From Candidatus Latescibacterota bacterium (GTDB lineage: Bacteria; Latescibacterota; UBA2968; GCA-2709665): DNA of 17,156 nt. Each line of letters begins with the position of its first letter. Positions within the stretch are counted from its first letter, which is position 1. Below are positions 477 to 17,156 of this stretch, piece after piece. Made by a program: the position numbers and the translations under genes. The DNA lies in assembly GCA_965248435.1 (NCBI GenBank), contig CBDFJH010000001.1, positions 1-17,156 of the forward strand. The letters are read 5' to 3'. The notes beneath the pieces were generated by a model. That model saw nothing but the letters and a program-made list of their open reading frames with translations, did not search any database and was not told where the DNA came from.

Positions 477-506
477 AATAACGGTTAATACTGCTTATAC
501 AGTATA

Positions 507-848
507 TTGAGAATATTGAATTTATCAGGGTACAGTTCTTTGGAAAATCGTGGACGACTTCAGACGATTATCGCAGCCATGCTACTCTGTATACCGTTAT
601 GGTTAGCGTGCCGGTGGATTCGAGTATCGTCGGAACATCTTGGTTGGTCGGAAAAGGTTGCGGAATTCAGTCATGGAGTCCCGGAAATTCTCATTCGAAC
701 GGAAGTTTCGCTGTTACTTTCTTTGTCAGCCTTCCTGGTCGGAGCACTGGCGATCAGAAATACCAAAGCGTTATGGAAAGCGATTGCAGTTTCAGAATCC
801 ATTGTTTCGCTACTGTTATCTTTGTGGTATGCATGGACATTTTTATAG
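507..848 (+). CDS. Small hypothetical membrane protein (about 3 hydrophobic segments)
   Basis: 113-aa ORF co-oriented with the upstream gene. Hydrophobic stretches are TIIAAMLLCIPLWLAC, VSLLLSLSAFLVGALAI and IVSLLLSLWYAWTFL. The TTG start is uncertain. Confidence 0.5.
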   Translation: MRILNLSGYSSLENRGRLQTIIAAMLLCIPLWLACRWIRVSSEHLGWSEKVAEFSHGVPEILIRTEVSLLLSLSAFLVGALAIRNTKALWKAIAVSESIVSLLLSLWYAWTFL

Positions 849-961
849 GTCAAGTCACCTGACTTTACCATTTTTAACGCAGTTGTCAAGGAAGAGTGGA
901 GCCCTAAGGATGAGAAGCGCAATTTTCTAACATCGAAACGAATCAAATTTTGACATTTCAT

Positions 962-990
962 TTGACGAATTCAACGGTCAAACGTATCAT
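962..990 (+). promoter_or_regulatory. Sigma70-type promoter of tRNA-Asn
   Basis: TTGACG (962-967), 17-nt spacer, TATCAT (985-990), 10 nt upstream of the tRNA 5' end. Confidence 0.7.
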
Positions 991-1000
991 TTACCCTTCT

Positions 1001-1076
1001 TCCCCGGTAGCTCAGCTGGCAGAGCGAGTGGCTGTTAACCACCAGGTCGGCGGTTCGATCCCGTCCCGGGGAGCCA
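1001..1076 (+). tRNA. tRNA-Asn (anticodon GTT)
   Basis: 76 nt. Acceptor stem TCCCCGG/CCGGGGA, D arm GCTCAGCTGGCAGAGC, anticodon loop CTGTTAA (GTT at 1034-1036), T loop GTTCGATC, encoded 3' CCA. Confidence 0.97.
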
Positions 1077-1118
1077 TCTCCTGTCGGCGGTTTGAAATCC
1101 GCCCAGAGCTTAACTCAA

Positions 1119-1158
1119 GACCTCGCGGCGTGATGCTTGCGGGGTCCTTCTATTTGTT
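1119..1158 (+). terminator. Putative intrinsic terminator downstream of tRNA-Asn
   Basis: GC-rich hairpin GACCTCGCGG...TTGCGGGGTC (1119-1146, with G-U pairs) followed by pyrimidine/T-rich CTTCTATTTGTT. Confidence 0.5.
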
Positions 1159-1467
1159 CCTAATTCTTCAAAGATTTACGCTGTTCAGTACATTTGTCTC
1201 GATTCTCCAATTCGTCTCGGAGCGGTACCGGTGCGAGTGCAGTTTGGGGTATCGTGCGCACGCTCCGCGGCTGTCGCCTCCAAATTCTCCCATTCTCCGT
1301 TCTTCGGAATCGCTCTGTTTAACGGCCCGATTGCAACGGACGGCCTTGATCGTGGTCTTCAACGGATACATACCGGCACGTCGGCGAAAGTGCCGGGGCG
1401 GAATGGAGAGTGCGGATCGTTGGTCCGGCTCCCTACGGTTGCATTCAGACGGCGCTCACGAATCCAA

Positions 1468-1497
1468 TTGACATTCTGGCGCAATTTCACCTATTTT
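1468..1497 (+). promoter_or_regulatory. Putative sigma70 promoter for the HTH / R-M operon
   Basis: Perfect -35 TTGACA (1468-1473), 18-nt spacer, TATTTT (1492-1497), about 95 nt upstream of the HTH gene. Confidence 0.4.
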
Positions 1498-1592
1498 AAG
1501 CTTGTTTCTCCGAATATGTACCAGTCACGTGTCGCCAACGCGGACTCCCTCGTCGGAACGGCTCGACTGGGTTCACGAGGATGCCCAGAGCA

Positions 1593-1793
1593 ATGATGGA
1601 AGATCGGTGGTTCTCCGTAGACGAGATTGCAGCCTACCTCGGGATCAAGCGGGACACGGTCTACAAGTGGATCGCAGAAAAGCAGATGCCAGCACACCGG
1701 ATGGGGCGTCTCTGGAAATTTCGCAAGGAGGAAGTCGACGAATGGGTGAGATCAGGAGGAGCCGATGAGACCAGGGATCAAGGACATGAGTGA
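1593..1793 (+). CDS. Excisionase-like helix-turn-helix DNA-binding protein (HTH_17 type)
   Basis: MEDRWFSVDEIAAYLGIKRDTVYKWIAEKQMPAHRMGRLWKFRKEEVDEWV is a classic excisionase-family winged HTH, commonly found ahead of type I R-M operons on islands. The start could be ATG 1581, 1593 or 1596. Confidence 0.88.
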   Translation: MMEDRWFSVDEIAAYLGIKRDTVYKWIAEKQMPAHRMGRLWKFRKEEVDEWVRSGGADETRDQGHE

Positions 1794-1917
1794 TAGCAGA
1801 ACCCCTTGCGGGCCCCGTCGCGCGAACGAACAGGCGGACCGGGACGCCGGTTCTTGTCCGAGGTCAGTTTCTCGCTGCGCGCTGAGTTTGAGAGTCTGAG
1901 GCGGAGGATACACACCG

Positions 1918-3946
1918 TTGGAACACATCGGAGAGATCGAGAAACGGCTCTGGTCCAGCGCGGATAACCTGCGGGCCAATTCCAACTTCGCCAGCAACGA
2001 GTACTTCCTCCCTGTCATGGGGCTGATCTTCCTTCGGCACGCGTACAGTCGTTTCCTCAAGGTCAAGGACGAGGTCGAATCGGCGCTGCCGCAGCGAAGT
2101 GGGAAGGTCCGCGCGCTCACCAAGGAAGACTTCTCCCAGAAAGGGTCGATCTTTCTGCACCCGGAAGCACAGTTCGATCATCTCGTCTCTTTGCCGGACA
2201 GTGCTGACCGAGCCCAGGCGATCATCGACGCCATGGAACGGATCGAAAAGGACTATGAGACCCTGCGCGGCGCCTTGCCGAAAGCCGAGTATCAAGAACT
2301 TGATAACGACGTCCTCGGGCAAATCCTGCACACCTTCAACGACCCAGCACTCAAGCGCGCCAATGGAGACATTTTCGGTCGTATCTACGAGTACTTCCTG
2401 ACGCAGTTCGCTGATCAGAAAGCCCACGACGGCGGGGAGTTCTTCACACCGGTCTCGCTCGTCCAAATGATCGTCAACGTGATCGAGCCTGAATATGGCA
2501 GGGTGCTCGACCCCGCCTGCGGTTCGGGCGGTATGTTCGTGCAGAGCGCGCACTTCATCGAACGGATGCACCGGAACCCGACCGAACGGGCCACTTTCTA
2601 CGACATGGAAAAGAACCCGACGACCATCCGGATCGCCAATATGAATCTCGCCGTGCACGGCCTGGAAGGTAACATCCAGAAGGCCATCACCTACTACGAA
2701 GATCCCCACGAGCTCTTCGGCAAGTGCGATTTCGTGATGGCCAATCCGCCCTTCAACGTCGACGAGGTGGACGCGGAGAAGGTGAAGAACGACCCGCGCT
2801 TGCCCTATGCTCTCCCGGGCGTGAACAAGAAGGGCAAAGTCTCCAACGGCAACTACCTCTGGATTTCGTATTTCGACAGCTACCTGGACGGCAAGGGTCG
2901 GGCCGGGTTCGTCATGTCCTCGCAGGCTTCGTCCGCGGGCGGCCAAGAAGCGAAGGTCCGAAAGAATTTGATCGAAGCGGGTCACGTGGACGTGATGATG
3001 GCGATCCGCTCCGGTTTCTTCTACACGCGCACGGTGCCGTGCGAGTTCTGGTTCCTCGACAAGGACAAGCCCCAAGAACGGCTCGATAAAGGTGCTGATG
3101 ATTGACGCGCGCAACGTCTACCGGAAGGTGACGCGCAAGATCTACGACTTCACACCCGAACAACAGAAGAATCTGTCGGCAATCGTCTGGCTCTATCGGG
3201 GTCACGCTGATCGCTTTGTCGAGCTGGTGGTCGACTACCTTGAGCGCATGATCGAGGCGATGGGCCACGCAATAGCGCCGCTCCGCAGGCTCTCTGCGGC
3301 CCTCGCTGAAGCAATTGCGGCCCGTGCACGTGACGGACTGTCGGACGACCTGGCTGAGCGCATCGATGAACTCAAGACTACGGAGGCAACTTTTGGGGAA
3401 GACGTGGAGCGCTTTGAGGCCATGGTTCAGGAGATTTCCAATGCCTGGCAACCACCGAGTCGGGACAATGAGTCGCTCAAGGACTTCGCCGAGCGGGCGG
3501 AGCCACTGGCAGACGTGAGCCGGGATCTGATTCGGCAAGCGGATCATCTGTACAATCTACTGTCACGCCTTGCCGAAGCGACCAAGAAGAACGACCGCGG
3601 GAGCCCGCTCAGGCCGCTCGACCAAGCGCGGAAAGAAGCGGTCGAGCATCTCAAATCGTGGCGCTATTTCCGGCGGCAGGCGCACTGGTTGCAGCAGCGG
3701 TTTCCAAGCGCGGAGCTTCGTGATGTCGAGGGGCTGGTGAAGCTGGTTGACCTGAAGGAGCTGGAGGAGAACGACTGGAGCCTGTCACCGGGACGCTACG
3801 TCGGAGTCGCTCCCGAAGAGGAAGATGAAGACTTCGACTTCGAAGAAACGATTCGTGAAATCCATACGGAACTCGATGAACTCAATGCCGACGCAGCACA
3901 TCTGGCAGCAACGATGAAGAGAAACTTCGAGGAGTTGGCGATATGA
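1918..3946 (+). pseudogene. hsdM: Type I R-M methyltransferase subunit M, split by a +1 frameshift at ~3088-3090
   Basis: N-terminal EKRLWSSADNLR, GEFFTP, motif I VLDPACGSGGMF, motif IV ANPPF, C-terminal WSLSPGRYVG. ORFs 1918-3105 and 3092-3946 join as LDKVLMIDAR if one A is removed from GATAAAGGTG, giving ~675 aa. GGAGG RBS at 1903-1907. Confidence 0.92.
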
Positions 3947-5163
3947 GCTGGCAAGAGATCAGCCTCGCTGGCGTCAGTGAGTCCGTTAGCTATGGTTACA
4001 CCGCGTCTGCCTCGGAAGACCCAATTGGACCAAAGTTCCTTCGCATAACGGACATTGTGCCAGAGTGTCTAGATTGGGGTTCCGTACCCTACTGCGAAGC
4101 AAGCGAAAAGGATCAAAATCGCTTCTCGCTGGAAGTTGGCGACATCGTTGTTGCACGGACTGGTGCAACAGTTGGCTATGCGAAGCAAATCCGCGATCCC
4201 GAAAGTGCCGTTTTTGCGTCCTACTTGGTCCGTTTCAGAGTCGATAGTGAACTGGCGGACCCCTACTTCGTTGGTCGTCTCGTCGAATCGACGACCTACA
4301 AGAGATACGTCAAGTCTCAAGTCGGCGGAGCTGCCCAGCCGAATGCGATCGCGAAGGTCTTGGGCCGCTTTGTATTCAGATTGCCCCCTCGGTCGATCCA
4401 ACAGCGTATAGCTTCCGTCCTCTCCGCCTACGACGACCTGATCGAAAACAATCGGCAGCGGATCGCGTTGCTGGAGCGGGCGGGGCGAGAGCTCTATCGC
4501 GGGTGGTTTGTGCGTCTGCGGTTTCCCGGCCATGAGCACACGAATATCTTCGATGGCGTTCCAGAGGGGTGGGAGAGGAAGACTCTGGGTGATGTGCTTT
4601 CGAGCCTAGAGTCAGGTGGGCGTCCCAAGGGCGGAGCTCAGGAAGAGGGTATACCTTCAATCGGCGCGGAAAATGTCACTGGCATCGGCCAGTATGACTT
4701 CACCAAAGAGAAATATGTTCCAGAAGAGTACTTTGATGCCATGCGGAAGGGCGTTCTGGGAAGCCGAGATGTCGTGGTCTATAAGGATGGAGCCAATATC
4801 GGACGGTCATCGTATTTCGGCGACGGCTTTCCGCATGAGAAGTGCGCCGTAAATGAGCACGTTTTCATTCTTCGGGTATTGCCGGAGGTGGGACAGAATC
4901 TCCTCTACTTTTGGGTTGCGGAGGACGAAACACGCCAGCGCATAGCTAATCTCAATGCCAACACAACCCAACCGGGAGTAAGCCAAGGCAAGCTCAAGAC
5001 CTTGGGTCTTGTCCAGACGCCAAATGTGATCGCAGGTCAATTCAATGAGGATTTTGAGCCGTTCGTCCGGCAGATTTTCCTGCTCGCACAGGCGAACCAA
5101 CGACTCACCGAAGCCCGCGATTTGCTGCTGCCACGCCTGATGTCCGGGGAGGTGGCAGTGTGA
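3943..5163 (+). CDS. hsdS: Type I R-M specificity subunit S (two TRDs)
   Basis: Intact 406-aa ORF. Central conserved region QQRIASVLSAYDDLIENN...WFVRLRFPGHE...GVPEGWE and C-terminal ARDLLLPRLMSGEV. ATGA overlap with the hsdM stop. Confidence 0.95.
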   Translation: MSWQEISLAGVSESVSYGYTASASEDPIGPKFLRITDIVPECLDWGSVPYCEASEKDQNRFSLEVGDIVVARTGATVGYAKQIRDPESAVFASYLVRFRVDSELADPYFVGRLVESTTYKRYVKSQVGGAAQPNAIAKVLGRFVFRLPPRSIQQRIASVLSAYDDLIENNRQRIALLERAGRELYRGWFVRLRFPGHEHTNIFDGVPEGWERKTLGDVLSSLESGGRPKGGAQEEGIPSIGAENVTGIGQYDFTKEKYVPEEYFDAMRKGVLGSRDVVVYKDGANIGRSSYFGDGFPHEKCAVNEHVFILRVLPEVGQNLLYFWVAEDETRQRIANLNANTTQPGVSQGKLKTLGLVQTPNVIAGQFNEDFEPFVRQIFLLAQANQRLTEARDLLLPRLMSGEVAV

Positions 5164-6582
5164 ACCAAGGGACCCTCTCCGACCTGCTCGCCCTTGGCGA
5201 AGGCTTCACGACCGAATTCAAGCGCTCCGGCACGGCCGGACTCGGACGGGAGGTATGCGCCTTCGCCAACGCCACCGGCGGAACGATTCTGCTGGGGGTG
5301 GCGGATGACGGAGAAGTATGCGGGGTTGGCAGCCACAATCGCCTGAAATCGGAAGTCCAGTCCATCGCCCGCTCCGCCGATCCCCCCGATTGCGGTGGAA
5401 ATCGAGAGCGCCGGCCAGGTGCTCTGTGTGCGAGTACCTGCCCAGCAGAGCAAGCCCTACTCGTTCGGAGGCAAGTTCTTCATCCGTGAGGGCGCGAGCA
5501 ACCAGCAGATGTCACGCGAGGAGATCCGCGAGTTTTTCTCCAAGGATGGGCTCATCAGATTCGATGAGACACCATGCCGAATCTTCGATTTGGAGCGGGA
5601 TCTGACGGAGGAGAATTGGGAGCGGTTCGCTCAACGGGCAGGGCTTCCCGAAAACTTGGAGCCGGTTGCGACGCTGGAGAACCTACATTTGGCCAAGGCG
5701 GGAGAAATGACGCACGCCGGTGCATGGCTGCTCGCCACCGACGTCACGCGCTACACCCTGCGGGCCGGGGTGACCTGCGCGGTGCTTCGGGGCGTGACCA
5801 AAACCCACATCCTCGACCGGAAGGAGTTTACCGGCGATCTCTATTCCACGTTTGAGGACTGCATGGTGTATCTGCAGGCCAAGCTCAACACGGCCTTGAT
5901 ACCCCATGCACGGGGAAGGGACGAACAGCTCGAGCTCCCTGAAGATGCCTTGCGGGAGGCGCTGGTCAATGCCATCGCCCATCGGGACTACCAGTCCACG
6001 GCGAACGTCCAGGTCTACGTCTTCCGTAACCGTTTGGAGATTGTGACGCCGGAGGGCCTGCCGGCAGGGATGCGTGAAGAAGATTTGGGCACGAAGAGCG
6101 TCCTTCGAAATCCACTCCTGTTCGGGATGTTCTACCGCATGGGGTTGGCCGAGCAGATCGGCAGCGGCATCCGACGCATCCGCCAGTTGTGCCGCGACTA
6201 CGAAGTCGCCGAGCCGCTGATCGATGTCTCCGATAATTGGGTGACGACGACGTTCGCGCGACCGGTTGAACATGCCGCAGACCGGGGGACCCGGCATGCC
6301 ACCCCCCAAGTACCCCCTAAGCGCCCCCCACGTACACCCGAAGTCACACCCAAAGTATCGAGGCTGCTTCGGGTCATCAGCGGAGCGATGGAACGCCAGT
6401 CCCTGCAAGAGGCCCTTGGGCTCAAGGCAGAAAAGAACTTCCGTCTACTCTATCTGCGTCCGGCCATCGAAGCAGGGTGGCTGGAAATGACCGTCCCTGA
6501 CCGACCCCGCAGCAGCAACCAAAAGTATCGCCTCACGGAAAGAGGCCGGGCGCTGCAGGATCAACTGAGGCGGACGCAATGA
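5160..6582 (+). pseudogene. AlbA_2 (Schlafen-like) DNA-binding / HATPase_c_4 regulator with C-terminal winged HTH, +1 frameshift in a C6 run at 5382-5387
   Basis: GEGFTTEFK...CAFANATGGTILLGVADDG (AlbA_2), ALREALVNAIAHRDY and EQIGSGIRRI (HATPase_c_4-like), YLRPAIEAGWLEMTVPDRPRSSNQKYRLTERG (Fic-like C-terminal HTH). Removing one C restores DPPIAVEIES, giving ~473 aa. Confidence 0.85.
6301..6357 (+). repeat. Degenerate ACCCCCCAAGT-type tandem repeat encoding a TPQV/TPEV linker
   Basis: Units ACCCCCCAAGT, ACCCCCTAAGC, GCCCCCCACGT, ACACCCGAAGTC, ACACCCAAAGTA lie in the linker before the C-terminal HTH. Confidence 0.55.
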
Positions 6583-9500
6583 GTTTTTCGCCCTATACCG
6601 AAGACACCCTCGTCCAGCAGACCACCGCCGACTACCTCGAACGGCAGCTGGGTTGGGAATCGGTCTTTGCTTACAACACCGAGACTTTCGGGCCGGAGGG
6701 GACATTCGGGCGGGCGAATGATGGCGAGGTTGTACTCATCCGCTATCTCCGCAGGGCGCTCGAAATCTACAACCCCGGCCTGCCTGACGGAGCCTACGAG
6801 AACGCGATCCGCGAAGTCGTCCAGGTGAGCGCGGCGCAATCGACTCTGCAGACAAACCTCGAAAAGTATGACCTGCTCCGCAACGGCGTGAAGGTGACCT
6901 ACCGAGACCCGCGCGGGGGCATGGAAACCCGGACGTTGTGTGTCTTCGACTTCGACAACGCTGAGAACAATCACTTCCTCGTCGTGCGTGAGCTCTGGAT
7001 CAAGGGACCGCTATACCGCCGCCGAGCCGATATCGTCGGTTTCGTCAACGGCTTGCCGCTCTTGTTCATGGATCTGAAGAACATCCACCGGAACGTCCGC
7101 CGTGCCTATGAGGAAAATCTCGCCGACTACAAAGACACCATTGCCCACATCTTTCATCACAACGCTTTCGTAGTTCTGGGCAACGGTGTCGATGCTCGAC
7201 TCGGCAGCTATTCGGCCTCGTTCGAGTTCTTCCGCGAGTGGAGGCGCCTTGACGAGGACGAGCCCGGCGTCGTCGACATGGAGACGCTTCTCAAGGGCGT
7301 TTTCACGAAATCTACGTTCCTCGATCTCTTTGAAAACTTCGTTCTCTTCGACGACAGCGGCGAAAGGCTGATCAAGATCGTCGCTCAGAACCAGCAATAT
7401 CTCGGCGTGAACCGGGCGATCCGATCGGTCGATGCACGTCACGAAGCAGCGGGCAAGCTCGGCGTCTACTGGCACACACAGGGGGCGGGCAAATCGTATT
7501 CCATGGTGTTCTTCAGCCGGAAGGTCCACCGCAAGTTCGGCGGCAATTTCACGTTCCTGGTGCTGTGCGACCGTGACGATCTCGACAATCAGATCTACCG
7601 GACGTACGCCGGCTGTGGCATCGTCGGCGAACACGAAGATGCGCGGGCCGACAGCGGCAAGCACCTGAAGCGTCTACTCGGAGAGCACAAGGCTTATGTG
7701 TTCTCCCTCATTCAGAAATTCAACGAGGATGTCCTGCCGGACGAGCCGTACTCGGACCGGGACGACATCATCATCGTCGTCGACGAGGCCCACCGGACGC
7801 AATACGGCCGCCTCGCGCTCAACCAGCGTAACGCGCTCCCGAACGCCCTCTATATCGCCTTCACCGGCACTCTCTTGATGAAGGACGATGAGAGATCACC
7901 CGACGGGTGTTCGGCGAATATGTGTCCAGGTACGGGTTCCAGCGTGCGGTGGAGGACGGCGCGACAGTGCCTCTGTTCTACGACGCGCGGGGTGAGAAGC
8001 TCGGCATCGCCACCGACGGGCTCAACGAGAGGACCGCCGAAAAGCTCGAGGAGTTCGAGACGAGCGACATCGATGTCGAACAGCGTCTGAAGCGCGAATT
8101 GCGGCGCGACTACCACATCATCACGGCGCCGGAACGACTCGAAGCCATCGCCGAGGATTTCGTCACGCACTACACGACTGGGTGGGAAAGCGGCAAGGCG
8201 ATGTTCATCGCCATCGACAAGGTCACCGCCGTGAAGATGCACGGCCTGATCACGAAGCGTTGGAATGAGCACGCCGCCAAACTCGAGGGCGAGATCTCCA
8301 GCCTGACCGACAACGAAGAGCGCTTGGCGCTGGAGCGGCAGCTCACCTGGATGAAGGAAACGGAGATCGCAGTCGTTGTGAGCGAGGAACAGGGCGAGGT
8401 CGCCAAGTTCCGCAATTGGGACCTCTATATCGAGCCACACCGAAAGCTCATCAAGGAGGGCTTCGAGACCGCCGACGGAGAGCGGATTGATGTCGAGAGC
8501 ACCTTCAAGAAGGACAGGCATCCATTCCGCGTCGCCATCGTCTGTGCGGTGTGGCTCACCGGATTCGACGTGAAGAGCCTTGCCACGCTCCATCTCGACA
8601 AATCGCTCAAGGCGCACACGCTGATGCAAGCCATCGCCCGGGCGAACCGCGTTCATGAGCGTAAGAACAATGGTCTCATCATTGACTATTGCGGCATCCT
8701 GAAGAACCTCCGCAGCGCGCTTGCGACCTTCGCCGGGCACACCGGAGAAGAAGATGGTGGCACGTCCGACCCTCCTGCGAAGCCCCAGGAGGAGCTACTC
8801 GAAGAACTCCTCGAAGCCATCGAAATGGTGCGTTCCTGCCTAGCCGCGAAGAATTTTCGCCTTGATGACATCATCGAGAAGACCGGCTTCGAGCGGAACG
8901 CGGCAATCGTCTCTGCCAAGGAGATCATCAACAAGAACGACGAGACCCGGAAACGCTTCGAGATCATGGCCCGCACCGTATTTCGGAAGTTCAAGGCGTG
9001 TCTGAACATGGCGGGCATTAACGATCATCGCAGGGCTTATGACGCCATCAACATCGTCTACAAGAGCCTGCAAGAAGACCGGGAACAGGCCGATATCTCC
9101 CAAATCATCAAGGGGTTGCATGGAGTAGTCGGCGAGAGCATCAGCATCACAGATGCGGATCGCGTACGGGAGACCCAAGCAACTTATAACATCTCAGCCA
9201 TCGACTTTGAACGGCTGCGCCAGGAGTTTGCGAAAAACCCGCAGCAGAATACGCAGGTACAGAATCTAAAGAACGTCATCGAAAAGCGCCTCGCCGTAAT
9301 GCTCGCGCAAAACCCTCTGAGGACGGATTTCCAGCAGCACTATGAGAACCTGGTCGCGGAATACAACCGGGAAAAAGACCGCGTGACGATTGAGCGAACA
9401 TTCGAGGCGCTGCTGAAGTTCGTTGCTGACCTCGACGAGGAACAGGATCGCGCCGTTACGGAAGGCCTCGACGAGCCGACACTCGCGTTGTTCGACCTAC

Positions 9501-9780
9501 TAAAGAAGAGCGAGCTTACACCGGCTGAGATCAAGCGCATCAAAACAGTTGCGATAGAGCTCCATGCGAAGCTCCAAGCGGAACTCGCGCGCATCCGTGA
9601 CTGGCAGAAGAAGGAAGCAACTCGGGACCGCATAAAGCAAATGATTTTTGACTTTCTCTACAGCGATGAGACAGGGCTACCACTGCCTATTCCGAGGCCG
9701 AGATCACCGTAAAGTCGGAGATGATCTTTGGCCATTTTTTCAACCAGCAGCAACACGGAATGGAGATGGCCTCAGCATGA
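6579..9780 (+). pseudogene. hsdR: Type I R-M restriction subunit R with two frameshifts (~7890-7895 and ~9683)
   Basis: Nuclease region RRADIVGFVNGLPLLFMDLK, Walker A HTQGAGKS, DEAH box, [14 protein letters not shown]. Removing a duplicated GA restores [16 protein letters not shown] 1-nt deletion near 9683 hides the tail [19 protein letters not shown]...ASA* (TGA 9778-9780). Repaired length is ~1066 aa. Confidence 0.92.
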
Positions 9781-10151
9781 TAGCCGCGTGCCTATCTTAG
9801 TCCGTGATTCGATTTTCGCCAGTTATATGCGTCAGTTACGCGGATGTAGTTTGATTACGCAAGGAAACAAATAGATGCGCAGAGTTGCCCTCAACTTCTT
9901 CCCACCAGCAACGGATCAGTTCACGATCACGCTCTACCGCCTCCCGTATATCGAACGTGAGCGGCCCAGAGTCGGAGACGAAGAAGCTGTTCGCAGGCAT
10001 CTCAATGTAGGTGGCAACTACGATCTCTACTGGACATTGTTCCAAAGAAAGGAAGACAGCACTGAGGTGGTATGGGAACCACTCGATGATGTCTATGTGA
10101 CAATAGATGCGCTTAGATTGGCCCTCATCCAGAGCTGTAGGAACAATTTAG

Positions 10152-11369
10152 GGAAGGTCTGATTAATTCTGTTTGAAAATTGTTGTTGTACTATACCTGG
10201 GCGAGTGCAAATTTCCAAGCAAACATAGAGGAACCTGAATATGCGTCAGTCAACGCTTGCCTCGCAAGGATTCGTGAAATATCCGATGAAAACGCGCAAG
10301 GCGCAGTTTCTGGAAGACATGGACCAGATCATTCCATGGTCAGCATTGGTAGAGCTGATCGAGCCCTACTACCCGAAGCCGCAAGGAGCCGGGCGTCGTC
10401 CGATTGGAATAGAGCGGATGTTGCGGATCTATTTTTTACAGCATTGGTATGGTCTTTCTGACCCGGCGGTGGAAGAAGCGTTGTATGACATGGAGGTGAT
10501 GCGCAAATTTGTCAGCATCGACCTGGGTCGCGAGCGAGCGGTGGACGAGACCACGATATGCAAGTTCCGTCACCTGCTGGAGAGCGAAGCACTGGCGGCG
10601 CAAATCTTTGAGCAAGTCAATCGCTATCTGGGCGAACAGGGACGTCAGATCAAGCAAGGCACAATTGTCGATGCAACGATCATTGATGCGCCGAGTTCGA
10701 CCAGGAACCGCAAACAAAGCCGGGACCCGGAAATGCACCAGACGCGCAAGGGCAATCAATGGTATTTTGGTATGAAAGCCCATCTTGGTGTCGACAGTGA
10801 GACGAAATTGATCCATTCGGTGGTAGCGACGCCGGCCAATCGGCATGACAGTCAGGTGATAGGCGAGTTGTTGCATGGCAGCGAGACGCAGGTATGGGGC
10901 GATTCGGCGTATACGGGTCAGGGGGAAGTGATCCGCGAAATAGCGCCCAAGGCGCTGGATCTGACGAACGAAAAAGGCACCCGTGGGCGGGCGTTAAGCG
11001 AAGCGCAACGTGCCAACAACCGTGACAAGTCTCGAACGCGCAGTCGGGTGGAACACGTCATTGGCGTGATGAAGAATCGATTCGGATTCGACAAGGTTCG
11101 CTATAAGGGGTTATCGAAAAATACCCATCATCTGTATGTATCGGCAGCATTGGTGAATCTGGCCGTATCGAGGGCGTATCTGGTGGCCCGGTGTAGCAAG
11201 ATTTGAGGCGTTGGTGTCGAAAAATTTCGAACATGAGCGCGAAATCAGGTAAAACCACCGTATCCGGGTCGACGAATCGAAGATCATATCGATAAATCGT
11301 CGCCCGATTTGTCAAAATTTGCGTATTCTTCTTCGGTATGATCAATTTCCCAAATTATTCAGACCTTCC
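10152..11369 (+). mobile_element. Complete IS5-family (IS5 subgroup) insertion sequence, 1218 bp
   Basis: 17-bp terminal inverted repeats GGAAGGTCTGATTAATT (10152-10168) and AATTATTCAGACCTTCC (11353-11369), 16/17 match. 4-bp target duplication TTAG at 10148-10151 and 11370-11373 fits the YTAR preference of IS5. Confidence 0.95.
10241..11206 (+). CDS. IS5 family DDE transposase (intact)
   Basis: 321 aa. MLRIYFLQHWYGLSDPAVEEALYD, catalytic contexts GTIVDAT, WGDSAY and RSRVEH, plus RDPEMHQTRKGNQWYFGMKAH. Confidence 0.96.
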   Translation: MRQSTLASQGFVKYPMKTRKAQFLEDMDQIIPWSALVELIEPYYPKPQGAGRRPIGIERMLRIYFLQHWYGLSDPAVEEALYDMEVMRKFVSIDLGRERAVDETTICKFRHLLESEALAAQIFEQVNRYLGEQGRQIKQGTIVDATIIDAPSSTRNRKQSRDPEMHQTRKGNQWYFGMKAHLGVDSETKLIHSVVATPANRHDSQVIGELLHGSETQVWGDSAYTGQGEVIREIAPKALDLTNEKGTRGRALSEAQRANNRDKSRTRSRVEHVIGVMKNRFGFDKVRYKGLSKNTHHLYVSAALVNLAVSRAYLVARCSKI

Positions 11370-11913
11370 TTAGATCGCAACTGCTTCCGGGTCATTGAGG
11401 GATTCCGTCAACACGTGAAGATCGTGACCAGTACATATCCCGACGGATCACAGGTGGTCTCGCTGGAGCCGTATCTGCTGCGCTCGCGTCGCCAATTTGG
11501 ATTTCTCGCCGACTTCCGATTCCGTCCCAATGAAGAGCATCGTGGATCGCGACGATCCCTTCAGCTCAGTCTATCGCTGGACAAGCACGGAAAGTCAAAT
11601 CTGAATTATTTCGCTGATCGTTACTTGCATCTTGTCGATTTTGTGGCCGAATTCCACAAGCGGATCTTCCCGCTCAATGTTCCAGGTGATCAAGAGGTAG
11701 CAGTCGGATCACAGCTCGTGGAGCTCGCGCCTGAATCACTCGACGTCAAAAGCTACGTAGTTGGCTCTGGCGTCGAATCCAGATCACAGTTGATGGGCGT
11801 CAAACAGTCGGGTCCGTTAAAGAAAGTCCTGAATGATACGCACCTGTACTTCCTCTACAGGCGAGAAGACCATGCGTTGTCTCAAGATATTTTTAGGGCA
11901 CTTCGTGGCGATT

Positions 11914-12024
11914 CTTGAGTTTGACGGTTTGGAATTATAAGTAGTTGATTTTGTTTGTGCGAAATTGGGCGTGTACACTACATTCGCACCCATCGGAACA
12001 GGCTGGGGAAGAAATTATTGGAAG
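11914..12024 (-). mobile_element. Possible right-end remnant of another IS (IS1634-like)
   Basis: Abrupt switch to AT-rich sequence at the point where the Argonaute-like frame stops. The minus strand reads LPIISSPACSDGCECSVHAQFRTNKINYL* then ...CCGTCAAACTCAAG, reminiscent of IS1634-family termini. No matching other end was seen. Confidence 0.3.
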
Positions 12025-12028
12025 CTAG

Positions 12029-12718
12029 CCCGCATAAATCACCAGTTTGGAAATTAGGCACCGTACTGCCTCAAAATTAGCCTTCAATATTGCTTATGAC
12101 CCGTACAATCCATGATCAGGCACTTTTCAGCGCAGCTGAAACATAAAGTATCTAATTTGGTGGTTATCGAGGAGCTATTGGCCCTCGTCAGGCACTACAG
12201 AGCCGATTTCGACGCATTGGCAACCCCCAGCTCGAGACGGTTGAGTGTACTCGAGCTCGCCAGAGGATAGCCACGGTCACGCGACCGTGGACGAGTCTTG
12301 CCGATCAGGTCGCTCTTGCCGACCAGCATCGCCAATACACTATCCTAGCGCAGTTCATCGTGGTCATTGAGATCTTCATAACCCATCGCCAGGGCGAAAA
12401 TACGCTGCGCCAGCAACTCCCCTACACTGTGCCCGGTCACCCTGGGGTCACGATAATCACGAAAGCATTTGCCTGCCCGGTCAACAAGACCCAGGCGTAT
12501 ATCGACCTCCCGCAACAGTAACGCTCCGGCATCTGAACTGATCCGACCGCCATCAAATCGCGCCGTCACATTGCGGGGTCCACAGGGTTCAAATTCAAGT
12601 TCAATTGTTGTACACTGTGTATTCATAAGGCTGCGTTTCCTAGTTATAAGTAATTGTTTATAATGCCATTTATACCAGAAAACGCGGCCTTATTCAATTG
12701 TTTGGTGAGATATTCGGG
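12029..12718 (-). mobile_element. Internally deleted, non-autonomous IS1380-family element, 690 bp
   Basis: Inverted termini CCCGCATAAATCACCA (12029-12044) and TGGTGAGATATTCGGG (12703-12718), 13/16 match. Both are flanked by CTAG (12025-12028 and 12719-12722). Confidence 0.85.
12195..12626 (-). pseudogene. IS1380 family transposase N-terminal fragment with an internal TAG stop
   Basis: FDGGRISSDAGALLLRE...DYRDP...QRIFALAMGYEDLNDHDELR, then TAG (12347-12345), then the same frame continues DSVLAMLVGK...PLASSSTLNRLELG to a second stop shortly after. The DDE core is absent. The lower boundary is approximate. Confidence 0.88.
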
Positions 12719-12822
12719 CTAGCACCGCTGGTATAGACGGACCTCCCTGTACGATGGCCCTGATCTCCAATAGCCTGGTATCAGGCTCCCACGCAATTTC
12801 CCAAGGGAAGGATTGGTTATGC

Positions 12823-13150
12823 ATGGCACGGCGAGAGGAAGATGACCTGTTGACGAAATCACCAATCCGAAGCGGTGCACGTTGCGAGAGTTGCGTCGCT
12901 TCACCAGTCAGCGAGGCCTCCGGCCATCAAGGAAATGGCGAATGTACTCGGAACATCCGTCACAAACGCGCACGACCAGGTGACCCAGCGCGTGCGAAGG
13001 GGATACCTGAAACAAAAGTCACAGGAGGCGCGCAGCCTGACTATCGTGAGAGAGCTTGCGGATCAAATTCTTGATCTGGGGCCGGTTTCCATCGTCGGCC
13101 GAGTAGCCACCGGACAGCCGGTCCTGGCGCAAGAGAACATCGCGGTCGGA
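12823..13150 (+). pseudogene. lexA: LexA-like repressor, degenerate and truncated (DNA-binding domain and linker only)
   Basis: ATG 12823 (MARREEDDLLTKS), a frameshift near 12863, then PPAIKEMANVLG..AHDQVTQRVRRGYLK..ARSLTIV..VSIVGRVATGQPVLAQENI. This matches the LexA wHTH and the cleavage-site region (normally VAAG-x-P). No S24 peptidase domain follows. Confidence 0.7.
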
Positions 13151-13190
13151 ATCATCTTCATCACCCGACACAGTGGGTTCGATGACGGTA

Positions 13191-13219
13191 TTGACAAAAG
13201 ATACTTTTTATGGTAAAGT
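13191..13219 (+). promoter_or_regulatory. Sigma70 promoter for the FN3-repeat gene
   Basis: TTGACA (13191-13196), 17-nt spacer, TAAAGT (13214-13219) with an extended -10 TG at 13211-13212. Confidence 0.65.
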
Positions 13220-13267: not shown

Positions 13268-16200
13268 ATGATCATGATCGACGGCACATCCATCCAGAGT
13301 CTGGCCGACATGAACTACACAGAAGACTTGAATAGTTTCGCGTTGCGTCGAACAGGCGCAGATCAGAAAGTTTTTTTTTACCGGAAGACGGTTTCTACGA
13401 GGCCTTTCCCAAGGCTGTTTTTCATCGGTGTATTGCTCGCCGCCGCCACGCTGTTGCCAGCTTTCGCTGCGCCAGCGCAGGCGCAAGTGCTCGTGAGCAA
13501 CACGAGCCAGACCACCCACGGTTATACAGCATGTGTCTCGGTTCCTCAACTACTAGACTGTGCTCAGGGGTTCACCACGGGCCAGAATACGCGGGGCTAC
13601 GACCTTGCAAGTATCGATATTGACGTTGGCACGGCTCCGGGTAGTGGAACCCTGACGGTAACGGTGAGGGCCGCCAGCGGATCGGGTCACCCGACAAACG
13701 AGGTCTTATACACCTTGACCAACCCGACCAATGTGGGAACGGGATTCCAGACGTTCACCACCCCTGGCGTTGCCCATCTAAATCGAAACACCCAATACTT
13801 CGTGCACATGACTTTTAGCGGTAGCGGAACTAGACCCAGGTGGAACCTGACGGCAAACGACAACGAAGATTCAGGCTCGCGCACAGGGTGGAGTATCGGC
13901 AATCACCGCTACACGCGCCAATCTGGCGGAACCGGGAGTTGGGATGGTGATGGCGGTGTGTACTCAACTTCGATACAAATCAGGGTTAACGGGTACACCC
14001 TTGCCCCGGCCGCCCCGGAGAATCTCTGGTCCGCGCCGGGTGACGGCGTGGTCACGCTGTCCTGGACCAATCCGGGCAACGACACGATCACCAAGTACCA
14101 GTATCGCCAGAAAATAGTCACGGGCGACTACGGCAGCTGGACCGACATCTCCAACAGCGATAAGGACACCACCACACACACGGTGACCGGCCTGACCAAC
14201 GGCACCCGGTACAGGTTCGGTGTGCGTGCGGTCAATGATTCCGGTCCCGGCCAGGAATCCACCTTGACTGCCCGGCCGCTCGCGCGGCCGGCCGCCCCGG
14301 AGAACCTCTCGCCCGCGCCGGGTGCCGGCCAAGTCACGCTGTCCTGGACCAATCCGGGCAACAACACCATCTGGAAGTACCAGATCCGCACAGACAGTGG
14401 CGGTAACTTCACCGACATCAGCGACAGCAGTTGGACCACCACAACCTACACCGTGACCGGTCTGACCAACGGCACCCAATACACGATGGCGCTGCGCGCT
14501 GTAAACGCTTCCGGTGAGGGCACGGCATCCACCGCGAACGCCAGGCCGCTGTGGGTTGCCCCGGCAAACCTCTCGGCCACGCCGGGCGACGGCCGGGCGA
14601 CGCTGACCTGGACCGATCCGGACGACTCCACAATCGGCAAGTACCAGGTCAGCACCGATGGCGACGGGACCTTCACCGATATCGACAGCAACGACATCAT
14701 CGAAAACGAGACGAACAACATCCTCAAACACACCGTGACCGGCCTGACCAACGGTACCGCGTACACGTTGGCGCTGCGCGCGGCGAACGATTCCGTTCAG
14801 GGCCCGGCATCCACCGCGACCGCCAGGCCGCTGTGGCCCGCGCCGGTCAATTTGAAGGCGGCGCCGGGCAACGAGGAGGTCGAGTTGACCTGGGACAAGA
14901 ACACCGGGATCACCCATTATCGGGTCCAAACACAGAGCGGCGGCACGACGCTTATGCCTTCGGATTTCGAGTCGTCCGGATCGGGGATGAAGGAGGCCAG
15001 GACCATTGAAATCTTGACCAACGGCACCGAATACACCTTCACGGTGCAGGCGGTAGATACGTCCGGGAGCACCACCGTGATCACCGGCGTGCCATCCAGC
15101 GCGACCGCCACGCCGGCGACGGTGCCGGGGCGCCCGACGAACCTCTCGGCCACGCAGGGTGACGACGGCGAGACCACTCTGACCTGGACCGATCCGGACG
15201 ACTCCACGATCACCAAATACCTGGTCAGCAGCGCCGGTGGCAGTAACTTCACCGACATCAGCGGCAGCAACGCGACTACCATTACATACACCGTGACCGG
15301 CCTGACCAACGGCACCGCATACTCGTTGGCGGTGCGCGCGATGAACGCTTCCGGTAAAGGCCTGACGTCCAACACGACCGCCACGCCCTTGTGGCCCGCG
15401 CCGACCGGTCTGGTGGCGGCGCCGGACAACGGCCAGGTCACGCTCCAGTGGAACACGGGCGACCCCGGGATCGCCAAGTATCACATTCTGACGGAGGGAA
15501 CCGGCAGCGACATTAATAGGTTGGTCCTGGCCGGATCGGGGACGAAGACGACCGATATCGTTACTGGGCTGGGCAACGGCACCGAATACACCTTCACAGT
15601 GCGGGCGGCGTTGGGAACCGACCCCGGGAACCCCGTGTATACCGGCGCAACATCCAGCGAGACCGCTACGCCAGCGGTGACTTTGCCGGCCGCGCCGACG
15701 GGCCTCACGCCCAAGACGGGTGACGGCCAGATCACTCTGTCCTGGGACGATCCGAACAACATCACGATCACCGGGTACGACTACAGCACCGACTACAGCA
15801 CCGACGGCGGCGTGACGACCTTCATCCTCATTGCTGACAGCAGCGCGACCACCACCGCATACACCGTTATTAATCTGAGCGACGGTGGCGGTTCAGTACT
15901 CAACAACGACACCCGGTACACGTTGGCGGTGCGAGCGGTGAACGCTTCCGGTAACGGCCCGTGGGCGACCGCAACCGCCACGCCGATTGCGTTACCAGTC
16001 GCCCCGGCCAACTTCGACGCCACACGGGGCAGCGACGGGGGCGAAGTGACGCTGATCTGGGACGATCCGGACAACGACACGATCACCGGGTATCAGTACC
16101 GGCGGAAGAAAGGCAGCGGCGAATTCCGCGACTGGGTCGACATCAGCGACAGCGACATCAGCGCAAACGAAACAGCAAACACCCTCACACACACCGTGAC

Positions 16201-17156
16201 CGGCCTGAGCAACGGCAGGGTGTACACGTTTGAGTTGTGGGCGGTCAACATTTCCGGTTACAGTGCGGTGTCCAGCGATACCGCCACGCCACTGTGGCCC
16301 GCGCCGGCCAATCTGGCGGCGACTCCGGACCACGAAAGGGTCCACCTGGAGTGGGACGGTGTCTCCGGAGCCAGAAACTATACTCTCACAACCACAAACG
16401 GTGTGAATTGGAGTTCGTTTATCGCATTTAGCGAACCGCCGTCGAAGGTTGACGATTCCGTTGGTCTCGGTAATAATCCGTTGACCAACGGCACCGAATA
16501 CACCTTCACTGTGTGGGCGACAAACGCTGGCGGCACCCAAACCAGCGTGAAAGCCATCGTGACAGCCACCCCCGCGGAACAGAATCTGCCAACCGCCCCG
16601 ATTATTTCCTCGGTCACGCCGGGTGACCAACAGGTCACGTTGTCCTGGGACGATCCGGACAACATCACGATCATCAAGTACCAGGTTCGCTGGAAGGACA
16701 GCGACGACAGCAACTACACTGCCTGGGCGAACATCATCAACCCCAACCTCTATGCGACGCCCCCCACGCCCCCCACCACATACACTGCTACCGGCCTGAC
16801 CAACGGCACCACGTACACGTTTGAGGTGCGCGCGGGGAACGGTACCGGTGAGGGCGCGGCGTCCAGCGTGGACGCCACGCCGATTGCGATCCCGAACGCC
16901 CCGGAGAACCTCTCGGCCGCGGCCGGTAGCGAACAGGTTACTCTGTCCTGGGACAATCCGAACGACACCTCGATCACGAAGTACCAGTATCGCCAGAAAA
17001 CAGTCACGGGCGACTACGGCAGCTGGATCGACATCCCCAACAGCGATAAGGACACCATCACACACACGGTGACCGGCCTGACCAACGGCACCCGATACAC
17101 GTTCGAGCTGCGTGCTGTGAACGATACCGGTGACGGCCCGGCATCCACCGTGAACG
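13268..17156 (+). CDS. Large secreted/surface protein: signal peptide, choice-of-anchor R-like N-terminal domain, at least 11 fibronectin type III repeats (3'-truncated by the window edge)
   Basis: One frame appears open from ATG 13268/13274/13310 to the window end (~1290 codons), so it is absent from the ORF track. Signal-like RLFFIGVLLAAATLLPAFAAPAQA-QVLVSN, then AQGFTTG..GYDLASI..LTNP..TFT..NEDSG..GWSIGN, then repeats of PAAPENL..PGDG.VTLSW..P....ITKYQ....TVTGLTNGT.Y...VRAVN..G.G. Confidence 0.9.
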   Translation, partial: MIMIDGTSIQSLADMNYTEDLNSFALRRTGADQKVFFYRKTVSTRPFPRLFFIGVLLAAATLLPAFAAPAQAQVLVSNTSQTTHGYTACVSVPQLLDCAQGFTTGQNTRGYDLASIDIDVGTAPGSGTLTVTVRAASGSGHPTNEVLYTLTNPTNVGTGFQTFTTPGVAHLNRNTQYFVHMTFSGSGTRPRWNLTANDNEDSGSRTGWSIGNHRYTRQSGGTGSWDGDGGVYSTSIQIRVNGYTLAPAAPENLWSAPGDGVVTLSWTNPGNDTITKYQYRQKIVTGDYGSWTDISNSDKDTTTHTVTGLTNGTRYRFGVRAVNDSGPGQESTLTARPLARPAAPENLSPAPGAGQVTLSWTNPGNNTIWKYQIRTDSGGNFTDISDSSWTTTTYTVTGLTNGTQYTMALRAVNASGEGTASTANARPLWVAPANLSATPGDGRATLTWTDPDDSTIGKYQVSTDGDGTFTDIDSNDIIENETNNILKHTVTGLTNGTAYTLALRAANDSVQGPASTATARPLWPAPVNLKAAPGNEEVELTWDKNTGITHYRVQTQSGGTTLMPSDFESSGSGMKEARTIEILTNGTEYTFTVQAVDTSGSTTVITGVPSSATATPATVPGRPTNLSATQGDDGETTLTWTDPDDSTITKYLVSSAGGSNFTDISGSNATTITYTVTGLTNGTAYSLAVRAMNASGKGLTSNTTATPLWPAPTGLVAAPDNGQVTLQWNTGDPGIAKYHILTEGTGSDINRLVLAGSGTKTTDIVTGLGNGTEYTFTVRAALGTDPGNPVYTGATSSETATPAVTLPAAPTGLTPKTGDGQITLSWDDPNNITITGYDYSTDYSTDGGVTTFILIADSSATTTAYTVINLSDGGGSVLNNDTRYTLAVRAVNASGNGPWATATATPIALPVAPANFDATRGSDGGEVTLIWDDPDNDTITGYQYRRKKGSGEFRDWVDISDSDISANETANTLTHTVTGLSNGRVYTFELWAVNISGYSAVSSDTATPLWPAPANLAATPDHERVHLEWDGVSGARNYTLTTTNGVNWSSFIAFSEPPSKVDDSVGLGNNPLTNGTEYTFTVWATNAGGTQTSVKAIVTATPAEQNLPTAPIISSVTPGDQQVTLSWDDPDNITIIKYQVRWKDSDDSNYTAWANIINPNLYATPPTPPTTYTATGLTNGTTYTFEVRAGNGTGEGAASSVDATPIAIPNAPENLSAAAGSEQVTLSWDNPNDTSITKYQYRQKTVTGDYGSWIDIPNSDKDTITHTVTGLTNGTRYTFELRAVNDTGDGPASTVN
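14005..17156 (+). repeat. Tandem array of ~270-300-bp FN3-coding repeats (about 11 units)
   Basis: Recurrent GTCACGCTGTCCTGG and GTGACCGGCCTGACCAACGGCACC. Units begin near 14005, 14287, 14551, 14834, 15121, 15392, 15685, 15995, 16295, 16588 and 16891. Confidence 0.85.

Follow-up and report, generated by a model that had tools for sequence, protein, structure and literature searches.

A split Argonaute reading frame behind a type I restriction-modification operon

The stretch of DNA considered here (the window) spans 17,156 nucleotides and is the entire contig C2 (CBDFJH010000001.1, 17 kb) of assembly GCA_965248435.1 from a Candidatus Latescibacterota bacterium, the other contig of which, C1, is 5.66 Mb long. 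Downstream of a type I restriction-modification (R-M) operon and on the same strand it contains two open reading frames (ORFs; 9875-10162 and 11319-11918), both confirmed in the ORF list of the window, with an insertion sequence (IS) of 1218 bp in between. An earlier reading of the bare sequence (the original prediction) had held that these are halves of a single gene for a prokaryotic Argonaute (pAgo) with its own ribosome-binding site. Upon excision of the IS and one copy of the flanking TTAG the segment 9875-10151 indeed runs in frame into 11374-11918, giving 273 codons (92, one at the joint and 180) with zero internal stops and zero frameshifts, and a Shine-Dalgarno-like motif stands 9 nt before the ATG (Table 1). 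This frame is not a product of chance, because in tblastn searches its two pieces match the best homolog, P0003, with E-values of 2e-94 and 6e-38; the 5' piece is 77% identical to residues 1-92 and the 3' piece 83% identical to residues 89-273 of that protein. At the DNA level, homology to related loci starts exactly at the ATG at 9875 and ends at ~11915, and none was found 5' of the ATG or 3' of the break. As detailed below, the region is very probably the dead remnant of a long-B pAgo of the BPAS type, which retains codons 1-273 of ~632, is split by an IS5-family element, ends at mobile DNA and has lost its effector.

The pAgo frame is split at codon 93 by an intact IS5-family element. This element displays all the features by which the family is recognized, namely a DDE_Tnp_1 transposase, terminal inverted repeats (10152-10168 and 11353-11369, identical at 16 of 17 positions) and a 4-bp target duplication. 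IS5-family insertion sequences show a YTAR-type target preference. In contigs of the likely source metagenome the summed depth over the element is ~700-1600, as against ~9-11 on the unique parts of the pAgo frame. No IS-free (empty-site) joint was found among the contigs of four metagenome runs, which drop rare variants and are uninformative on polymorphism.

Table 1. Coordinates of the Argonaute remnant, the mobile DNA that disrupts it and the upstream type I R-M operon
Feature	Position	Strand	Basis or remark
Shine-Dalgarno-like AAGGA	9861..9865	+	9 nt 5' of ATG; sequence inspection
pAgo remnant, 5' piece: codons 1-92 and first base of codon 93 (N domain)	9875..10151	+	PADLOC pAgo_II; identity to P0003
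pAgo remnant, 3' piece: last two bases of codon 93 through codon 273 (L1 plus the greater part of L2, stopping just short of MID)	11374..11915	+	PADLOC; identity to P0003
TGA stop at the very start of the foreign DNA past the break; distinct from the native stop of the gene	11916..11918	+	homologs continue
IS5-family insertion sequence, 1218 bp	10152..11369	+	inverted repeats, transposase, depth
IS5-family transposase, intact, 321 aa	10241..11206	+	DDE_Tnp_1 E 1.1e-32, DUF772 E 7.2e-19
Target-site duplication TTAG, left copy	10148..10151	.	sequence
Target-site duplication TTAG, right copy	11370..11373	.	sequence
Repeated DNA of unassigned type, abutting the break	11916..12023	.	summed depth rises from ~9 to ~480 in bin 11889-12019
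IS1380-type (DDE_Tnp_1_4) element, 700 bp, internally deleted	12024..12723	-	21-nt inverted repeats 12024-12044 / 12703-12723
Type I R-M operon	1918..9780	+	Pfam, PADLOC, frames
hsdM	1918-3946	+	split by a frameshift near 3092-3105
hsdS	3943-5163	+	Pfam, PADLOC
Fic-like_C/HATPase_c_4 gene nested between hsdS and hsdR	5395-6582	+	Pfam, PADLOC
hsdR	6579-9780	+	frameshifts near 7900-8010 and near 9680

Relationship of the remnant to the long-B Argonautes

A Pfam search of both pieces returned no match at E <= 0.01. The PADLOC profile pAgo_II ("Class II") matches both pieces collinearly, at positions 1-86 of 617 (E 2.4e-6) and 95-264 (E 5.2e-43). With the second piece we recovered 115 longer homologous proteins, most of 631-636 aa and the best of them P0003 (84% identity), and the Pfam Piwi domain (PF02171) is present in 112 of these; full-length homologs with a PIWI domain, which the original prediction had named as the support to be sought, are thus at hand. 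Three homologs of 359-361 aa (P0044, P0061 and P0092) are without a Piwi match, and could be contig-end fragments or natural N-terminal stubs. P0003 itself matches pAgo_II end to end (E 2e-189), and among the solved structures of the PDB a profile built from 28 full-length family members (A1) ranks AfAgo (E 7e-25), EcAgo (5.5e-23) and RsAgo (4e-14) best.

An AlphaFold2 model of P0003 built on the A1 alignment (mean pLDDT 86, pTM 0.84) finds RsAgo as its best match in Foldseek (E 7e-27, TMq 0.72). Structural alignment with VIA-align superposes residues 2-632 of this model on RsAgo (Z 28, root-mean-square deviation 4.1, 578-588 residues aligned) and residues 210-632 on AfAgo (Z 31, root-mean-square deviation 3.3, 395 residues aligned), with the AfAgo-type L2-MID-PIWI region beginning at residue ~210. 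Given the agreement of PADLOC, homolog, PDB-profile and fold matches, the Argonaute call stands: judged by its sequence, the remnant is an Argonaute gene whose nearest characterized relatives are the inactive long-B pAgos, as had been predicted, the long-B placement being drawn from the nearest solved structures by profile and fold.

The remnant had further been proposed to represent an N-L1-PAZ-L2 half. The N-L1-L2 part of this proposal is borne out by the PADLOC matches and by the P0003 model, which aligns with RsAgo from residue 2 onward, such that the N-terminal lobe of the remnant is homologous to that of full-length pAgos. The PAZ part is not: Pfam PAZ is listed for none of the 115 homologs, the N-terminal half of the family is ~90-110 residues shorter than that of RsAgo before L2 by both profile offsets and structure alignment, and in the P0003 model the L2 helix follows the L1 sheet after only ~25 residues. 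The architecture of the family is probably N-L1-L2-MID-PIWI, with PAZ absent or rudimentary. Within the P0003 family G403-I-G405-Q-A-H408 is invariant and H471-A-T was also noted; we take these to stand at the positions of the GxDVxH and RDG motifs of active Argonautes. All long-B pAgos are reported to be inactive (Ryazansky et al. 2018, PMC6299218).

Truncation of the gene and the DNA beyond the break

The original prediction spoke of a hidden gene, which overstates what survives: removal of the IS restores no gene but just 273 of ~632 residues (43%). The homologs run on after ...LRGDS-FQTF... by ~359 residues that comprise MID and PIWI, and since both protein and DNA homology of the remnant end at this point, the TGA at 11916 belongs to foreign DNA. 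Searches for the MID-PIWI half with the family hidden Markov model (HMM), the pAgo_II HMM and P0003 (tblastn) yielded nothing past residue 273-277 in the whole assembly (two contigs, 5.67 Mb, 97.5% complete). Likewise, a search for SIR2, the partner of the intact relatives described below, gave no match in the window at E <= 1.

The DNA that takes over at the break is repetitive: a unique unitig (11346-11939) ends ~24 nt inside it, and summed depth in the likely source metagenome ranges from 480 to 3285 between ~11916 and 12805. The adjoining IS1380-type element (depth 1256-3285) retains a transposase remnant running from 12626 down to ~12180, with a stop at 12345 and a match to PF13701 (E 1e-26) confined to positions 2-82 of 435. 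From the loose ends at 12226/12228 it is evident that other copies take a different course there, and that the present one is internally deleted. The locus is a dead relic that was disabled twice by mobile DNA, with its effector gone, in a decaying stretch. Further downstream, 12754-13216 holds short frames that overlap one another and weakly match a LexA DNA-binding domain (E 0.012), probably another frameshifted gene remnant, followed at 13268-17155 by the start of a huge protein (>1296 aa, open at the contig end) with at least 10 fibronectin type III repeats. The guanine-plus-cytosine (GC) content of this last gene is 61.6%, compared to ~51% in the pAgo/IS stretch.

The intact relatives are pAgo-SIR2 systems

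To understand what the remnant derives from, we collected related loci from species-representative genomes, retaining the best 80 of 196 matches. In all 80 a SIR2 gene lies directly downstream of the pAgo gene on the same strand, and in all 80 the pAgo is one continuous protein (~620-640 aa in 79, 481 aa in L022). In L022 (10001-12518) this 481-aa frame, equivalent to residues 1-480, is followed right away by SIR2 within a cassette nested in an R-M operon, and it may represent a second, independently truncated pAgo. The effectors of L003 and L005 contain the Pfam domain SIR2_2 and match PADLOC Aga_SIR2 "Class II" (E 1e-121 and 3e-118). Hence, by homology, the intact family is assigned to the long-B pAgo-SIR2 (BPAS) systems, which have been published as an abortive-infection and anti-plasmid system. 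The original prediction that the pAgo acts with a neighboring effector accordingly holds for the relatives, each with its SIR2_2 gene next door, and fails for the window and indeed the whole assembly, neither of which has an effector. No full-length copy was found in 40 genomes of the same family or order, two of which have weak matches of 30% identity over ~90 residues, and in a metagenome scan with P0003 the relatives were all <=47% identical.

In the characterized BPAS system the effector bAgaS on its own lowers viability ~10^4-fold, the pAgo co-purifies with bAgaS and suppresses its toxicity, and NAD+ depletion is triggered by an invading plasmid with a CloDF13 origin (Song et al. 2023, PMC10620215). 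The pAgo of the related BPAN system uses RNA guides with a 5' phosphate and DNA targets (PMC10620215). By analogy, the intact ancestor of the remnant would have acted like BPAS, with the pAgo restraining a toxic SIR2 partner until the DNA of an invader was recognized (a step guided by RNA in BPAN), upon which NAD+ depletion and abortive infection would have been released.

Nesting of pAgo-SIR2 pairs in type I R-M operons of relatives

The original prediction also paired the pAgo with the type I R-M operon and called for a census of the neighbors of intact homologs. We therefore searched the 80 loci by tblastn (E <= 1e-6), taking as queries the Hsd proteins encoded in the window and in L003 and L005; divergent Hsd genes could be missed. 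In 10 of the 80 (L003, L004, L005, L006, L013, L019, L020, L022, L046 and L078) the pAgo-SIR2 pair lies between hsdM-hsdS and hsdR, all on one strand, while L069 shows a partial nest with hsdS before and hsdM after the pair, and L066 and L063 have Hsd pieces only at a distance or on the opposite strand. Nine of the ten nested loci fall within the 21-locus clade that holds the relic, with L078 and L069 placed elsewhere in the tree, and the starred branches require the nested arrangement to have been gained or lost at least four times. The census thus recovers both the hsdMSR association (nine of the 21 closest loci) and the downstream effector, SIR2_2, in all 80. By sequence homology, then, the closest relatives of the remnant are often carried as cargo between the hsdS and hsdR of another type I lineage that is orthologous among them.

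The hosts of the nine nested close loci belong to Nitrospirota, Binatota, Acidobacteriota, Gemmatimonadota, Latescibacterota and Chloroflexota. Relative to L003 these loci show identities of 77-84% for HsdM, 71-79% for HsdR, 68-78% for pAgo and 63-77% for SIR2; as the Hsd proteins are about as conserved as pAgo and SIR2 across these phyla, the cassette travels as a unit. L078 (284-10425) presents a compact hsdM-hsdS-pAgo-SIR2-hsdR form with gaps of 13-42 nt after hsdS, and in L005 the end of hsdS and the beginning of the pAgo gene share 19 nt. Compared with L003, the L078 HsdM is 60%, HsdR 51% and pAgo 35% identical, i.e. the same Hsd lineage is here joined to a distant pAgo.

The slot between hsdS and hsdR accommodates other genes as well. 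In L003 (7457-9521 and 13129-13983) it has five cargo genes, among them genes for TIR-domain, trypsin-like protease and DUF3800 proteins, and the HsdM of this locus has an N-terminal HTH_3 domain. A conserved protein of ~199 aa without Pfam or PADLOC match, here called "Y", is encoded between SIR2 and hsdR in L004 (10518-11114), L005 (13501-14097) and L019 (14403-14984), and is still found beside SIR2 in L010 (13172-13746), where the Hsd genes have been lost. Queries with DUF3800, TIR and Y proteins gave nothing credible in the window. The Fic-like_C/HATPase_c_4 gene of the window operon has homologs (28-32% identity) in the SIR2-hsdR gap of L013 (13268-14176) and L020 (14409-14909), and is a recurrent passenger of type I operons.

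These arrangements bring up a reading in which pAgo and type I R-M constitute an integrated two-layer defense, the pAgo-SIR2 pair acting as guardian or back-up and being either co-regulated with the restriction complex or triggered via it, in the way PrrC is by EcoprrI, and the window being a decayed example. Back-up defense genes embedded in type I R-M operons are established by prrC in EcoprrI and by Ronin (PMC12707154, 10.1101/2023.04.06.535777), and HsdS (og_11) and AlbA_2 figure among the proteins of pAgo operons (Ryazansky et al. 2018). The one-strand nesting in ten loci, the tight packing, the joint movement of Hsd and pAgo across phyla, the recurrence of the nested state and the pairing in L078 of the same Hsd lineage with a distant pAgo all speak for such coupling. 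Yet 12 of the 21 closest loci (three of them on short contigs) and 58 of the 59 more distant ones are without the full nest. Of ten large flanking ORFs sampled from six un-nested close loci, nine are of non-defense types (aconitase, polysaccharide export, oxidoreductases and others), the tenth being an AAA_13/AAA_21 ATPase, which implies that the pair stands alone in those genomes; the TIR, trypsin-like, DUF3800 and Fic-like cargo, moreover, is what one would expect of a hotspot for defense genes.

The window itself offers this reading little. Its Hsd proteins are 24-28% identical to those of the cassette lineage, within which the values are 71-84%, and its stub comes behind hsdR, outside the hsdS-hsdR slot; in another metagenome run, a relative of the window hsdR diverges at 9758/9763 and has no pAgo. 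We consequently hold the two-layer reading to be rather unlikely, and the pairing claimed by the original prediction is borne out for the clade but not for the R-M operon of the window. A bolder proposal, namely that one Hsd lineage (with an N-terminal helix-turn-helix in HsdM) repeatedly captured pAgo-SIR2 and wired it to restriction failure or anti-restriction, or had it conditioned by restriction, with the window as a decayed escapee, strikes us as a somewhat longer shot still. The earlier suggestion that HsdR cleavage products might have fed the pAgo fits poorly with the RNA guides and DNA targets of published long-B pAgos (PMC10620215; RsAgo PDB entries). A full-text search found no papers on BPAS inside type I operons, although Fig. 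6 and the data sets of Ryazansky et al. 2018 and Supplementary Fig. 1 of Song et al. 2023 may show such cases.

As regards the spacing in the window, the pAgo start had been placed 94 nt past the stop of a repaired hsdR. In the assembled sequence hsdR ends with a stop codon at 9710-9712, which leaves 162 nt up to the pAgo ATG, whereas the neighboring frame encodes a plausible HsdR tail through to the TGA at 9778-9780. In some metagenome contigs from related strains a single base is added after 9679 or 9681, which would restore the last hsdR frame, and this makes the +1 repair near 9680, and with it the proposed distance, plausible. The frameshift is probably real in the strain of the window, because a short-read unitig at the organism's depth equals the window sequence at this point. 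The PF11867 HMM did not detect the HsdR C-terminus in the second frame, the profile ending at position 303 of 329 at base 9661.

Reliability of the contig and order of decay

Those unitigs that are in perfect agreement with the window extend into each repeat by only 24-26 nt, where we had taken 31 nt to signify bridging. In the metagenome both junctions fall in repeats of high copy number, and C2, a single 17-kb contig, comes from a bin that is 7% contaminated, all of which is compatible with an assembly artefact, i.e. a chimera stitched at repeats from an organism whose real genome has an intact pAgo. A chimera of this kind would be hard to square with the perfect 4-bp TTAG duplication and the exact in-frame continuation, the trace of a true insertion, or with unitigs at the organism's depth (9.4-10.7) that have 0 differences over 9688-10177 and 11346-11939; added to this, neither an IS-free joint in the contigs of the four runs nor a MID-PIWI region of the family in the assembly was seen. 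An artefact of this sort is therefore very improbable. On C1 neither the IS5 element nor the DNA past the break has a close copy, apart from one 69% match of 235 bp. GC content is 56.6% for both C1 and C2, and their tetranucleotide correlation of 0.84 fits a mean of 0.92 (standard deviation 0.13). Either the mobile elements are rife in other community members or C2 does not come from the C1 organism.

A tree built from the N-terminal 300 residues places the remnant as sister to P0003 (SH-aLRT 99), with an end branch of 0.094 as compared to 0.13 for P0003. The ratio of nonsynonymous to synonymous substitution rates (dN/dS) between the remnant and eight relatives is 0.12-0.16, against 0.07-0.16 for intact pairs, and nothing suggests long neutral decay. 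The least credible alternative, that the 273-codon piece or the 95-aa N-terminal ORF is a working N-L1-L2 protein comparable to AfAgo-N with a separate MID-PIWI partner, could appeal to the existence of split Argonautes (AfAgo/AfAgo-N; PDB 8ok9, PMC10954474), the lack of internal stops and the purifying-type dN/dS, and founders on the IS5 element breaking the frame at codon 93, the lack of a MID-PIWI partner in the assembly, an end that lies inside L2 at a repeat boundary and not at a domain border, and the single continuous chain encoded by all 80 related loci.

For the preferred reading, a dead remnant of a BPAS-type long-B pAgo, the course of events may be pictured as follows. Deletion or rearrangement at the ends of mobile elements would have removed the PIWI region and SIR2 together, and this 3' loss probably came before, or independently of, the insertion of IS5. 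Given that SIR2 alone is toxic (PMC10620215), such a joint loss would be a tolerated route of decay. Several points weigh against this reading. BPAS function was demonstrated in a single gammaproteobacterial system. The dN/dS test has little power over recent relaxation because dS is saturated (>1), and loss of the catalytic tetrad, a putative feature of the family, is read from a comparison of motifs (GxDVxH against the invariant G403-I-G405-Q-A-H408). The short reach of the unitigs into the repeats means that the junctions are not independently proven, and since neither mobile element is copied on C1 the membership of C2 in the C1 organism is uncertain. Finally, how the deletion came about and in which order the events took place are matters of inference.

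Significance and comparison with known systems

An automated annotation would list this locus as two hypothetical proteins, while it is really a pseudogene fragment of little consequence for the genome. Its value lies in showing a defense island in the course of being dismantled by insertion sequences. As SIR2 is toxic without the Argonaute, the effector of a decaying system should be lost no later than its sensor; in the present case PIWI and SIR2 are both gone. The relic adds a dead member to the known BPAS kind of Argonaute, and the nesting of defense genes in type I operons is itself already known. A more useful lead lies outside the window, in the conserved five-gene hsdM-hsdS-pAgo-SIR2-hsdR cassette found in metagenome-assembled genomes of about seven phyla, with L078 providing a compact form.

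The insertion that splits the frame is a typical member of the IS5 family, with a DDE_Tnp_1 and DUF772 transposase, 17-nt terminal inverted repeats and the 4-bp TTAG duplication, and nothing notable sets it apart. Among solved Argonautes the best profile and fold matches of the family are RsAgo (5awh, 6d8a and others), AfAgo/AfAgo-N (1ytu, 8ok9) and EcAgo (23wq), all of them inactive and guide-binding. Identity to these is 15-20%, RsAgo is ~145 residues longer, and AfAgo is split into two proteins whereas the family of the relic forms one chain.

The likeness to prrC in EcoprrI (PMC12707154) lies in the relatives, where pAgo and SIR2 fill the space between hsdS and hsdR in the same orientation, and both effectors are of the abortive-infection kind. 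The present case differs from prrC and Ronin in that the window stub follows the hsdR of another Hsd lineage, and in that any physical or regulatory coupling of pAgo-SIR2 to Hsd would be hypothetical. With BPAS the agreement is closest: the homologs match pAgo_II end to end, a SIR2_2/Aga_SIR2 Class II gene lies next to them and the pAgo is upstream, as published (PMC10620215). The window copy departs from it in comprising only residues 1-273, without PIWI and SIR2, and its clade, at ~632 aa, is shorter than RsAgo and EcAgo, with PAZ probably absent or rudimentary. Published BPAS systems are described as simple operons of two to three genes (PMC10620215), while in the close clade of the relic about half of them are cargo in a type I R-M operon.

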